Shown: positions 9,001 to 12,000 of the stretch, piece by piece
Numbering within the stretch: position 1 is the stretch's first letter
Layout of the letters: each line of letters opens with the position of its first letter
Source: a virus
Lineage: Duplodnaviria > Heunggongvirae > Uroviricota > Caudoviricetes
DNA: 28,751 nt
IMG/VR virus record: IMGVR_UViG_2531839664_000032
Strand: one strand, 5' to 3'
Made by a program: the position numbers

Positions 9001-12000
9001 TATTAAAGCTGTCCACATCGGATATGTGACACTAATAGTATCAATGGATTGATATTATTAATGGATATAAACATGTAATAAGGATTTATTATGAACATTC
9101 AACCGACCATACAATCTGGAATCACCTCACAAAACAATCAACATCATCAAACAGAACAAATACCCCCTACACAAATACCGCAATCCGAATTACCTCTAGG
9201 ATGCCAAGCTGGATTTGTTGTTAATATTCCAGATGATATACAGCAACATGCACCGGAATGCGGTGAAACAACAGCTCTACTGAGCTTGATAAAAGATAAA
9301 GGTCTGCTCTCAGGGCTAGACGAATATATAGCTCCTCACCTTGAAGAAGGATCCATAGGAAAAAAAACATTGGATATGTTTGGTTTATTCAATGTTACCC
9401 AAATGGCATTAGAGATACCTAGTTCCGTTTCAGGCATCTCTGGTAAATATGGTGTCCAGCTAAACATTGTAAAACCAGATATTCATCCTACATCAGGTAA
9501 TTATTTTTTACAGATATTCCCTCTGCATGATGAAATAGGTTTTAATTTTAAAGACCTTCCTGGCCCGTTAAAAAATGCATTAAGCAACAGTAATATATCA
9601 ACCACTGCAGTGTCGACTATTGCATCGACTGGAACATCAGCCACTACTTCGACGGTAACCACCGAGCCAAAAGACCCAATACCATGGTTTGGATTAACAG
9701 CTCAAGTGGTTCGTAATCATGGTGTAGAACTTCCTATAGTCAAAACTGAAAATGGATGGAAGCTTGTTGGAGAAACACCACTTACTCCTGATGGGCCGAA
9801 AGCAAATTACACGGAGGAGTGGGTTATCAGACCGGGAGAAGCAGATTTTAAATATGGTGCATCTCCATTACAGGCAACTCTAGGGCTGGAGTTTGGCGCA
9901 CATTTCAAGTGGGATTTAGATAACCCTAATACTAAATATGCCGTTCTTACCAATGCTGCCGCAAATGCGCTTGGTGCTTTAGGGGGATTTGCAGTATCCA
10001 GATTTGCTAGTACAGATCCAATGTTAAGTCCTCATATCGGTGCAATGGTTGGGCAAGCAGCAGGGCATGCCATACAGTATAATACCCCTGGATTAAAGCC
10101 AGACACTATTTTATGGTGGGCTGGTGCGACACTGGGGGCTGCCGATTTAAACAAGGCCGAGTTTGAAGTAGCTAGATTCACTGACTATCCTCGTATATGG
10201 TGGCACGCAAGAGAAGGAGCTATTTTCCCCAATAAAGCAGATATTGAACATGCCACAGGTGCTGATATACGCGCAATGGAAGAAGGTATCCCTGTTGGAC
10301 AGCGGCATCCAAATCCAGAGGATGTGGTAATCGATATCGAAAGCAATGGCTTACCACATCATAATCCATCAAATCATGTTGATATCTTTGATATAATCCA
10401 AGAAACAAGAGTCTAAGCTTTAACTTGTTTATTTTAAAATAATAGCTGAAATGGATGGCAGCTATTATTAATAAGGATTAATATATTTTTTCTAAAATAC
10501 CCCACAAAATAAACACATCATAAAAATTCTAAATGCACACACCTAATCTCAAAAAAACAAACTTACTATTTGACTTGGATTATGTTTTTAATCCAATATT
10601 TTCCGACAACATCTCCACAGAAAAATGCATTTACATAAAGACGCCTTCAAGTCATCTGAAACCTGCCAACCACAGACACCTTCTTATATTCTGGATGTCT
10701 GCGGCGTTTTTTTACAAATTACTGACAGCCAATACTCTCTCAGAGAAAAATATTTTAACTATCTTTTATAATGAAGTTTCCCTTGATAGGATCATAAACA
10801 CATTTATCAGGACTTATAATCATTGATGCCGTTATTGGTTCTCGGGTCAGTGGATGATATGAGCCTTCACTAGCTAAACGAGAAAATGCATCAAAATCAA
10901 ATAAGCAGCATACTGCCGAACTATCTGAATTTTTGACAAACACTCCTTCTTCGGGTCTCTCTAGTGTAATTGGACACTGAATAGACTCTGGCGGGCACTG
11001 GAAATTTCCTGAACTAACAGGAAACTTACATTGAGATATTTTGTCCTGAATACTCTCTTGCGATTGTGCTTCACCTGAGTCCGAAAGCATACTGAGCATC
11101 CTATCGCGAAGAGCTTCAGGGCCGTTATTAAACCCATAAAGGAATAACTCAGTAAGCAATCCCCCACTACTGCCGCTGGATAGAAAACGCCCATCGGTTT
11201 CATTAAATACAATGCTGACAGTCTCATTACCTAATGTAAACTCCCCTCGACCGCTAGATGCTACTTGAGCTCGAAGGACATTCAATCCATTAAAAATGAG
11301 CTTGATCTAATCTCCGAATTTAACGGCATTATAAAACTCCCTATTTTAATTTAAACTCCAGACTTAAATAGCTTTAACAAACATCTGCCTTACATGACAA
11401 CAAAAACCGGAGCCGGACTCCGGTTTTGTGAAGCTGTCGGGTTACTTCATCCCGCCAATATTTTCCCACGTCCCGTCAGCACGCAGGATTTGCAGCGGTC
11501 TTACCACACACTGTATCTGCTTTTTATCCGCATCCAGTATCACCACCTGCGTGATTACCCTGGCCTGCTCCGGAATAATACCATTCTCATCTGACTCCAG
11601 GATGTCTGCCGGCCCCAGACGCAGTTGTGCTGTAAGTAACTCCCCGTGTTCACGGTCATCATGCTTTCCGTACCCGCACAGACGCTGCATAAGTTTTTTT
11701 AGTACGTTCATGTCATTCTCCTGTTCTGCCTGTATCACTGCCCACTTCATCCAGCCCCTTAACATCCTGCCACGGCCCGTCACCAAACCTGACCTGCAAA
11801 TGCTGAAACAGCCCCTGAACCTGTGTGGCATCTTTGGGGTCAAGAAAGGTCAGTCCGGTGATGAGCGCACCATCTGTACCCGGGAACCAGCCATTGCTGT
11901 TTGTCTCAATAATGCTCGCCGGCCCCAGACGAAAACGGATTTGTGTCTCCCCCGGGTCGCCCTTCGGTCCCTGAGGTCCGGTTGCCCCCACCGGGCCAGC

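Follow-up and report, generated by a model that had tools for sequence, protein, structure and literature searches.

Related Genes and Comparable Systems

Stand-alone genes for the PfC (Phage_fiber_C) domain of phage tail fibres are already known. An 89-aa PfC-only gene was described by Mondal et al. 2016 (PMC5155283), an experimental paper that discusses it, and the pair that it forms with a fibre gene is already catalogued in Pfam, PHROGs and RefSeq annotation. Orthologues of the gene described here are ORF68 of Sp5, ST933Wp60 of 933W and gp59 of phi24B. ORF68 stands in the list of non-essential late genes, outside the nine essential genes, and is classed as non-essential for both plaque formation and lysogenisation of K-12 (Mondal 2016, PMC5155283). 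A literature search by locus tag found nothing useful, and PMC12309495 deals with other phi24B proteins.

The PfC domain itself is described in Ghosh 2012 (PMC3368898): it trimerises and makes up the distal knob of the fibre. The PfC domain of EPclA trimerises on its own and renucleates the collagen helix. Recombinant EPclA-type Stf trimerises alone in BL21(DE3), and rotary-shadowed recombinant EPclA shows a 7-nm knob without the small protein. In the passages searched, PfC figures solely as the C-terminal end of a fibre, and the stand-alone gene goes unmentioned.

Several other systems place an additional module at or after the end of a fibre gene. In lambda, Tfa is encoded directly 3' of stf, is coupled to it (tfa starts on the last base of orf-314) and travels with the fibre tip module. 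Intramolecular chaperones of the Peptidase_S74 type, as in endosialidase and T5 pb1, are C-terminal modules that drive fibre trimerisation and are auto-cleaved after folding. Finally, the invertible segments Mu G and P1 C and the diversity-generating retroelements (DGRs) have a second fibre-tip coding copy just downstream of the fibre gene. In DGRs, the template and the variable repeat are nearly identical.

The Small Gene and Its Junction with stf

The window, a stretch of 28,751 nucleotides (IMG/VR record IMGVR_UViG_2531839664_000032), comes from a degraded O121 prophage. Both translation and a PGAP CDS place an intact 89-aa gene at 11442-11711 on the minus strand, which carries all of the genes. 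Its product is WP_001101707.1, named "phage tail fiber C-terminal domain-containing protein" by PGAP. The initial annotation had correctly recognised an 89-aa gene but gave it the range 11442-11843, which belongs to a mechanical 133-aa ORF started at TTG.

The junction between the two genes occupies 11712-11722 on the minus strand. An AGGAG Shine-Dalgarno sequence (11718-11722) is followed by the stf stop codon TGA (11713-11715), one base (11712) and the ATG of the small gene (11709-11711), six bases downstream of the AGGAG. The 1-nt spacing and the ribosome-binding site are as first described, and by its sequence this is a gene translationally coupled to the end of stf. The orthologues in Stx2 phages agree with it in length, PfC domain and stop-1 nt-ATG junction, and likewise fall in PHROG 576.

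The junction could also be read as a site of programmed +1 frameshifting or bypass, yielding a fibre with two tandem PfC domains. The frame of the small gene does continue upstream into stf without a stop for 44 codons, 933W has the extended ORF annotated, and the stf stop is UGA-C with an SD-like AGGAG upstream. The search database of the phi24B authors included hypothetical fusions, 'Fusion_6159_FS1/2', labelled 'Spike or just gp59?', and arrays of PfC domains exist, as in one fibre (P0146) with four tandem PfC-like repeats. However, the P-site codon GAA is unable to re-pair in the +1 frame (AAU). The SD spacing of 6 nt suits initiation at the ATG better than a prfB-type frameshift, and a prfB-like model was rejected on the junction sequence. 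Mondal et al. likewise found no frameshift signal (PMC5155283). No peptide of the upstream extension is among the phi24B peptides listed, and in one locus (L084) the two genes have a different arrangement, overlapping by 14 nt. A fusion product is therefore very improbable.

The 89-aa protein can be divided into two parts. Residues 28-89 (11445-11630, minus strand) are the PfC domain, delimited by a Pfam match and by its low pN/pS. Residues 1-27 (11631-11711, minus strand) form an N-terminal extension, delimited by alignments, with a short predicted helix followed by a Cys/His-rich polar linker. This extension is absent from the fibre and varies more than the PfC domain (pN/pS 0.295), although its MxI(L/F)KK...C..C.K pattern is retained in a divergent homologue (P0124). 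A lipoprotein or signal-peptide reading of the N-terminus (MNVLKKLMQRLCG...) was rejected because it has no hydrophobic core.

Structure prediction adds little detail. An AlphaFold2 monomer model, made from an 11-sequence alignment, has a mean pLDDT of 52 and a pTM of 0.28, a quality too low for fold searching, and places a low-confidence helix at residues 3-11. The phi24B authors likewise report no confident AlphaFold model for the PfC domain. A profile search of the PDB for related solved structures gave only spurious coiled-coil matches, such as optineurin (E=0.007).

The Partner Fibre and the Operon End

The partner gene, stf, lies at 11713-12953 on the minus strand and encodes a collagen-like side tail fibre of the EPclA type. 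As in the EPclA fibre of PMC3368898, it is built of PfN, a coiled coil (PCoil), collagen repeats (Col) and PfC, and the small protein has this same PfC domain. In the window stf is a pseudogene, as judged by three-frame translation, the PGAP 'frameshifted' flag and alignment. Alignment with the intact 437-aa Stf of O157:H7 493/89 reveals that 73 nt of the collagen-like repeats are deleted at 12186/12187, which shifts the frame; a 1-nt slip in a G-run had been considered as the cause and was discarded on this alignment. The repaired protein matches PF08400, PF01391 and PF06820. Its PfC domain, located by Pfam, BLASTP and alignment, comprises residues 339-402 (11749-11940, minus strand) and is followed by an 11-residue tail. 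The Stf C-terminal domain to which the small gene was first compared is thus encoded here, but because of the deletion it is not in frame with the Stf N-terminus. With its partner broken, the pair is probably non-functional in this prophage.

Directly 3' of the small gene lies a terminator-like hairpin (11399-11427, minus strand; RNA fold -21.2 kcal/mol, z=-3.6), consisting of an 11-bp stem, AAAACCGGAGU...GCUCCGGUUUU, and then UGUUGU. It was missed by a simple terminator scan, probably since the stem takes up the T-run. In L084, too, the small gene is followed by a comparable hairpin. In the window the hairpin closes the tail operon, ahead of the effector (moron) genes. In O157:H7 493/89, PGAP annotates a 26-aa 'tail assembly protein' fragment after the small gene; it was discarded as a Tfa remnant, being dissimilar to lambda Tfa and overlapping the terminator hairpin.

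A second, 5'-truncated copy of the 3' end of the small gene was found by repeat search and translation at 7305-7444 on the minus strand, where PGAP has a partial CDS. It consists of the last 23 codons (translation QCVVRPLQILRADGKWENIGEMK*), the hairpin and about 50 nt more. With 11375-11513 it forms a direct repeat of 92-94% identity at a spacing of 4069-4070 nt.

The locus differs from its Stx2-phage relatives in three respects. The fibre here is an EPclA Stf (437 aa when intact), whereas theirs is a 645-aa podovirus lateral fibre (EPclB). The small gene is here the last before the hairpin and the effector morons; that of 933W has further structural genes after it. And the partner fibre in the window is a pseudogene.

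Homology to the Fibre Tip

The initial annotation regarded the small gene as a paralogue of the Stf C-terminal domain on the basis of a shared motif pattern. Alignment supports this. In a single BLASTP comparison with the final ~65 residues of Stf, the small protein has 23 identities in 62 residues (37% identity, 60% positives, E=1e-13). Independently, both match PF06820 far above its curated gathering threshold of 25 bits: the small protein with 119.2 bits (E=1e-34, profile positions 1-64 of 64) and the Stf C-terminus with 123.9 bits (E=3e-36). On these sequence comparisons, the similarity is real homology and not chance. The small protein also matches PHROG 576, a family of 89-aa 'tail fiber proteins', over all of its positions (1-89 of 89, E=3.8e-59). 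Like Sp5 ORF68, it is an ORF of ~80-90 aa with a short N-terminal extension and one PfC domain, directly 3' of a fibre that ends in PfC. It differs from the PfC of EPclA in adding the 27-residue N-terminal extension and in lacking the 11-residue C-terminal tail of the fibre.

It had also been noted that the protein lacks obvious similarity to lambda Tfa, and none could be found: BLASTP gave no alignment at E<=100, PF06820 was the sole Pfam match at E<=1, and NCBIfam had no match, so that no Tfa-type family is represented. Nor did the Pfam scan find Peptidase_S74. Tfa differs further in being 194 aa long and not a paralogue of the tip of its own fibre, and the Sp5 orthologue of the small protein is classed as non-essential.

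Conservation of the Pair

The small gene and a PfC-tipped fibre are almost always found together. Among 80 IMG/VR loci selected by the small protein, all have the PfC of an Stf directly upstream, and 79 have the stop-1 nt-ATG spacing. Selecting instead by the Stf PfC domain (n=80) gives 72 loci with an intact small gene at this spacing and 7 more in which it is frameshifted, truncated or at a contig end; in one it is lost. The small gene is thus kept downstream of stf in 79 of 80 fibre-selected loci, counting the 7 that are damaged or cut off. The junction ACAGGAGAATGACATGAA is common to the window, the podovirus 933W and 6 related loci listed. Adjacency of genes does not by itself prove functional coupling.

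More distant examples can also be found. The protein of the 933W-type cluster (P0047) is 78% identical to that of the window. In GCA_008387015.1, which has no megablast match in E. coli, a divergent pair consists of a 212-aa non-collagen fibre ending in PfC and an overlapping 79-aa PfC gene, again followed by a hairpin. A profile search of 1.84 billion representatives returned only 85 matches, mostly E. coli fragments. A scan of one genome per species added little taxonomic breadth, since its sole finds were E. albertii and a 725-bp 'Xanthomonas pisi' contig, the latter probably a contamination.

The small gene therefore travels with PfC-tipped fibres of three architectures: the EPclA-type Stf of lambdoid siphoviruses, the EPclB-type lateral fibre of Stx2 podoviruses, and the 212-aa non-collagen fibre. 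What is new here is this near-invariant pairing, the non-collagen case in a genome outside E. coli, and the contrast in selection and the 55% DNA identity described below.

Selection and Recombination

For the whole 89-aa gene, pN/pS is 0.107 over 58 alleles; for its PfC domain it is 0.046 (pS about 0.13), compared with 0.23 for the PfC of the fibre tip. Purifying selection acts far more strongly on the small copy than on the tip of the fibre. The same contrast can be seen over longer distances. Between E. coli and the distant genome the small proteins are 65% identical and the fibre tips 34%, while small proteins and fibre tips are 30-38% identical to each other. The 89-aa gene belongs to an old, strongly constrained orthologous group.

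This bears on whether the gene serves the fibre at all. It could instead be a moron or lysogenic-conversion gene, an exclusion factor or a decaying, functionless remnant. In lambdoid prophages it lies at the boundary between the tail operon and effector morons (nleG, nleA), its orthologue is non-essential for the phage, and in the window it is intact in spite of the degradation of stf, lom and the remaining prophage. But selection of this strength rules out a remnant, and the N-terminus is not of the signal-peptide or lipobox type. The gene is coupled to stf and lies upstream of the terminator hairpin, in 933W it stands amid structural genes, and a PfC-tipped fibre accompanies it whatever the type of virion. 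A function unrelated to the fibre is improbable.

A second explanation, proposed by Mondal et al. (PMC5155283), is that of an intragenomic reservoir: the small ORF would be a spare cassette of tip DNA that recombines with the 3' end of stf, and its protein would have no role. Recombinants do occur. In one locus (L170), Stf is followed by a chimeric 92-aa gene, with the N-terminus of the small protein and a C-half of Stf-type PfC, and then by a normal small gene. In P0063, collagen repeats are joined directly to a small-type PfC, though at a contig edge. Both domains share an identical 14-nt run at their start, CGTCTGGGGCCGGC, which could serve such exchanges. It is, however, the longest exact run between small gene and stf tip, which share only 55% nucleotide identity, and the chimeras are rare singletons among 169 clusters. 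A store of DNA alone needs no open frame, start codon, Shine-Dalgarno sequence or amino-acid conservation; yet 79 of 80 copies are intact, with a pN/pS of 0.046 where pS is 0.13. The stand-alone copy also varies less than the tip of the fibre, where a store of diversity should vary more. We consider that the gene has little prospect of being such a reservoir.

The initial annotation suggested a duplicated receptor-binding tip used for host-range switching. The greater conservation of the small copy and the 55% identity speak against this, as does the lack of flanking inverted repeats, an invertase, a reverse transcriptase or a frameshift signal. An invertible segment like Mu G or P1 C was rejected: both copies have the same orientation, no inverted repeats flank them (the only pair, of 16 nt, lies inside stf), and no invertase is annotated within 6 kb. 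A diversity-generating retroelement was rejected on the 55% nucleotide identity and the absence of an annotated reverse transcriptase within 6 kb; here the downstream copy is a protein under constraint in its own right.

The Small Protein in Virions

Evidence at the level of the virion comes from phi24B. The proteome supplement for purified virions lists two gp59 peptides, VITQVVILDADKK and ADGTWENIGGMK, with a count of 3 each. Peptides of the fibre PfC have counts of 47 and 38, the former for the C-terminal tail peptide. If the count column is read as spectral counts, as was done here, the small protein's peptides are about 13-fold less frequent than those of the fibre tip among the peptides listed. 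Four other proteins at comparable levels were classed as contaminants in that study, and the low counts of the small protein could likewise be contamination.

Such counts bear on the possibility that the small protein is a stoichiometric distal adhesin or cap, a trimer stacked on the PfC knob as a receptor-binding, host-range tip in the manner of gp38 of T4 and S16. PfC domains do trimerise (PMC3368898), and P0146 suggests that PfC-like modules can be stacked in series. The conserved C-terminal tail of the fibre or the N-terminal extension of the small protein could provide for docking, and the small protein is detected in virions. However, its peptide counts are about 13-fold below those of the fibre PfC. 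Prophages of many serotypes have an almost unchanging small protein but a variable fibre PfC; on K-12 the Sp5 orthologue counts as non-essential; and recombinant EPclA already has its 7-nm knob without the small protein (PMC3368898). A distal cap is thus unlikely, if somewhat less so than the reservoir or a fibre-unrelated role.

A Proposed Fibre-Associated Accessory Protein

The 89-aa gene codes for a genuine, expressed protein, a paralogue of the C-terminal PfC domain of the fibre. As to its function, the explanation we prefer, to which we would give about an even chance, is that it encodes an accessory protein for fibres tipped with PfC, conserved but not essential, which serves as a helper in assembly or else as a minor subunit bound to the tip, and not an alternative tip that is swapped in. 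What is shown is homology, family membership, linkage, selection, the non-essentiality of an orthologue and the low-level presence in virion preparations; that the protein physically contacts the fibre tip and acts as a helper is inferred.

The protein is made by translation coupled to the end of stf, and most likely it would act on or with the PfC trimer of the fibre through homotypic PfC-PfC contacts. It could be a dispensable helper of assembly or registration that mostly leaves the fibre, or else a sub-stoichiometric subunit associated with the tip. Its gene holds the genomic place that Tfa has in lambda, without being a Tfa. Since EPclA folds and trimerises without the small protein (PMC3368898) and the Sp5 orthologue is classed as non-essential, any helper role is dispensable under laboratory conditions.

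The initial annotation had also offered a chaperone-like module that is expressed separately. This is plausible insofar as it means a non-essential helper. The analogy with cleaved intramolecular chaperones of the Peptidase_S74 type fails on cleavage, because the fibre PfC is retained in phi24B virions together with its abundant C-terminal tail (count 47). There is also no match to that family, and the additional PfC copy is a separate gene and not a released fragment.

More tentatively, the small protein may exemplify a separate type of partner for fibres, namely a paralogue of the trimerisation knob that acts by homotypic PfC-PfC contact, seeding or registering the trimer or capping some of the tips, unlike Tfa, gp38 or the cleaved chaperones. 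We regard this as possible, though doubtful. The small protein is conserved across siphovirus, podovirus and non-collagen fibres.

Significance

As the result of a genome scan, the finding is an ordinary one, and in the window the fibre partner is already inactivated. The wider setting is the EHEC prophages: PfC-tipped collagen-like fibres are present on most of the Stx-converting and effector-carrying lambdoid prophages of these bacteria. The cryo-EM study of phi24B lists what the conserved lateral fibres do biologically as a question still open. A partner gene that is strongly conserved and found with the PfC tip at all times offers an obvious and cheap handle on lateral-fibre function.

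The stand-alone tip gene

The gene directly downstream of stf lies on the minus strand at 11442-11711 and encodes 89 amino acids (MNVLKKLMQRLCGYGKHDDREHGELLTAQLRLGPADILESDENGIIPEQARVITQVVILDADKKQIQCVVRPLQILRADGTWENIGGMK). In matching O121:H19 chromosomes such as RM8352, this PGAP coding sequence is named "phage tail fiber C-terminal domain-containing protein" (WP_001101707.1). As the initial annotation described, a single base separates the stop codon of stf (TGA, minus strand, 11713-11715) from the ATG of the small gene, and AGGAG stands six bases upstream of that ATG. The interval first assigned to it, 11442-11843, contains the gene that was meant, but belongs to a mechanical minus-strand ORF of 133 amino acids with a TTG start. 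Directly 3' of the gene is a hairpin with an 11-bp stem, then U-rich sequence (-21.2 kcal/mol, z=-3.6 by RNA folding).

A run of seven A residues (11694-11700) occupies codons 5-7. One related locus (L113) has lost an A from this homopolymer, and the resulting frameshift inactivates the gene. Another (L155) is put out of frame by one additional base a few nucleotides past the run.

Relationship to the fibre

The proposal that the small gene repeats the C-terminal domain of Stf is borne out. The two align at 37% identity over 62 residues (BLASTP, E=1e-13), and both match all 64 profile positions of PF06820 (Phage_fiber_C, or PfC), the small protein with 119 bits and Stf with 124 bits (cut-off 25 bits). 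Repaired Stf also matches PF08400, a prophage tail fibre N-terminal domain, and collagen repeats, which is the EPclA architecture of Ghosh et al. 2012. The small protein itself is PHROG 576 (89 positions, E=4e-59). It is a member of both families and an orthologue of ORF68 of phage Sp5.

Although the small gene holds the same position as lambda tfa, it is not a Tfa. The protein has no similarity to lambda Tfa, as had been noted, and Pfam and NCBIfam scans gave no match other than PF06820. It also falls outside the cleaved intramolecular chaperones, invertible tip cassettes and diversity-generating retroelements; defining features of each of these classes, and of Tfa, were tested and are absent. 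The window's two PfC copies share 55% DNA identity, and nowhere do they match exactly for more than 14 nt (at RLGPA). Inverted repeats do not flank them, and the annotation within 6 kb lists neither an invertase nor a reverse transcriptase.

Over the PfC domain, small proteins are 65% identical to each other and fibres 34%, whereas a small protein is 30-38% identical to either fibre. By this measure the stand-alone proteins are a lineage apart, and a better conserved one.

Linkage to PfC-tipped fibres

In IMG/VR loci selected by the small protein, Stf N-terminal and PfC sequences lie directly upstream in 80 of 80, with the same spacing in 79. In loci selected by Stf-PfC, the intact small gene is found at exactly that spacing in 72 of 80; in seven it is frameshifted, truncated by an insertion or ended by the contig edge, and in one it is lost. 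An identical junction occurs in 933W, a podovirus with a different fibre of 645 amino acids.

A divergent pair can be found in GCA_008387015.1, an assembly for which megablast against 5,426 E. coli genomes gave no match. Here (110-974 of locus L084) a stand-alone PfC gene of 79 amino acids (P0124, 58% identical overall) shares 14 nt with the end of the gene before it, whose 212-aa fibre-like product carries a C-terminal PfC domain and no collagen repeats. It is followed by a hairpin and then by T3SS-effector genes (NleG-like, SopA/NleL-like).

A word-indexed search returned 169 clusters, which trace with few exceptions to E. coli, E. albertii or Citrobacter rodentium, and an exhaustive profile search of 1.84 billion representatives returned only 85 matches. 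The small gene occurs in 296 phage records, by name almost all Stx-converting or Escherichia/Enterobacteria phages. A 90%-identical copy of the E. coli gene on a 725-bp "Xanthomonas pisi" contig (NZ_JPLE01000138.1, L086) most probably reflects contamination of the assembly with E. coli DNA.

The gene is strictly associated with PfC-tipped fibres of three architectures, in virions of two morphologies, and this suggests a role linked to the PfC tip. That its function has nothing to do with the fibre is improbable.

Studies of related fibres

Ghosh et al. (PMC3368898) found recombinant EPclA to be a trimeric dumb-bell, and the isolated PfC domain trimerises, makes a ~7-nm distal knob and renucleates the collagen helix. 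The experiments were run in BL21(DE3) or JM109 with no helper gene present, and in the passages searched the downstream small gene goes unmentioned. Because EPclA trimerises unaided, an obligatory chaperone is argued against. Of the earlier idea of a separately expressed chaperone-like module, a dispensable assembly helper still fits.

In the Stx2 podovirus Sp5, a systematic gene-deletion study by Mondal et al. (PMC5155283) showed that the fibre gene, ORF67, is essential, and it lists ORF68 with the non-essential late genes. The authors detected no sequence able to induce an ORF67-ORF68 fusion by frameshift. In phi24B, a 2026 preprint (10.64898/2026.04.10.717836) assigns the six lateral fibres to PfC-tipped gp61, whose C-terminal domain is neither resolved nor confidently predicted, and counts what these fibres do among its open questions; gp59, the small-gene orthologue, is without discussion in the main text. 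Among the peptides listed in its proteome spreadsheet, VITQVVILDADKK and ADGTWENIGGMK, unique to the small protein, have counts of 3 each, and two fibre PfC peptides (11 and 10 residues) have counts of 47 and 38, the column being read as spectral counts. The search database included hypothetical gp61-gp59 frameshift fusions (Fusion_6159_FS1/FS2, labelled "Spike or just gp59?"); in the part of the peptide table covered, which is truncated, no peptide comes from the frame upstream of the small-gene ATG. That the fibre and small ORF are made as a frameshift fusion is highly improbable.

Selection and recombination

The small gene is intact in 79 of 80 copies. Among 58 unique alleles, pN/pS is 0.107 for the whole gene, 0.046 for its PfC part (synonymous diversity 0.13) and 0.295 for the N-terminal 27 residues; it is 0.23 for the fibre PfC. 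This strong constraint on the amino acids shows, together with the preserved start codon and ribosome-binding site and the peptides detected, that the small gene encodes a working protein and is neither a silent DNA store nor a remnant.

Recombination between the paralogues does occur. In P0063 collagen repeats are joined to a small-type PfC, though at a contig edge. Locus L170 (GCA_005381265.1, 2697-3246) has three PfC copies in a row: a 437-aa Stf, a 92-aa chimera and a normal 89-aa small gene. The chimera joins the small-protein N-terminus to the PfC C-half and tail of Stf type, and the triple resembles the product of unequal crossing-over between the paralogues. Such recombinants are rare, and a role for the small gene as a recombination reservoir is quite unlikely.

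PfC-like modules can also be strung in series along one fibre, as follows from P0146 (L085, 3505-5202; Logan SRR17035117). In this metagenomic protein of 565 residues, four PfC-like repeats in tandem (…VVVLDAD…GILQVRRADGTW.EIPALKG) precede collagen repeats.

The surrounding prophage

E. coli O121:H19 chromosomes, RM8352 among them, match the window at 100% identity. PGAP flags stf (minus strand, 11713-12953) as frameshifted. Alignment with the intact 437-aa gene of O157:H7 493/89 places a 73-nt deletion inside the collagen-like repeats at 12186/12187, which puts the N-terminal portion of Stf out of frame with its collagen-PfC portion. The deletion falls between GGGG-containing repeats and inactivates stf. 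With its fibre reduced to a pseudogene, this copy of the locus is decaying. The small protein is exactly the same as that beside intact Stf in O157:H7 493/89 (WP_001101707.1). The prophage around the locus is degraded: in the PGAP annotation lom is truncated and adjoins an IS3-family element, a nleG-like (DUF1076) gene downstream of the small gene is frameshifted, and nleA is intact.

A direct repeat of ~140 nt (7305-7444 and 11375-11513; 92-94% identity, 4069-nt spacing) takes in the final 23 codons of the small gene, its terminator hairpin and some 50 nt past that. A 5'-truncated integrase pseudogene adjoins the lower copy, and the nleG-like pseudogene and nleA sit between the copies. Loci L065 and L067 carry this extra fragment too, ~4 kb downstream. 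The repeat may have been left behind by a tandem or nested prophage, or by an effector cassette recombining at this site.

Function

The duplicated domain had been suggested to be a receptor-binding tip used for host-range switching. Three facts argue against a swappable or principal tip: the small protein is better conserved than the fibre tip, virions contain it in sub-stoichiometric amounts, and the Sp5 orthologue is non-essential on K-12. The small protein is rather unlikely to be a stoichiometric cap or adhesin. A dispensable accessory of the fibre, contacting its PfC trimer in an interaction that we infer, accommodates all of these findings, and we give it about even chances. Such an accessory would either help in assembly or registration and then mostly leave the fibre, or stay bound at the tip as a minor subunit.

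The observation of paralogous fibre-tip domains is correct and was already known. The linkage, the selection, the ancient paralogy and the non-collagen pair are added here; they refine the picture and leave it unchanged.
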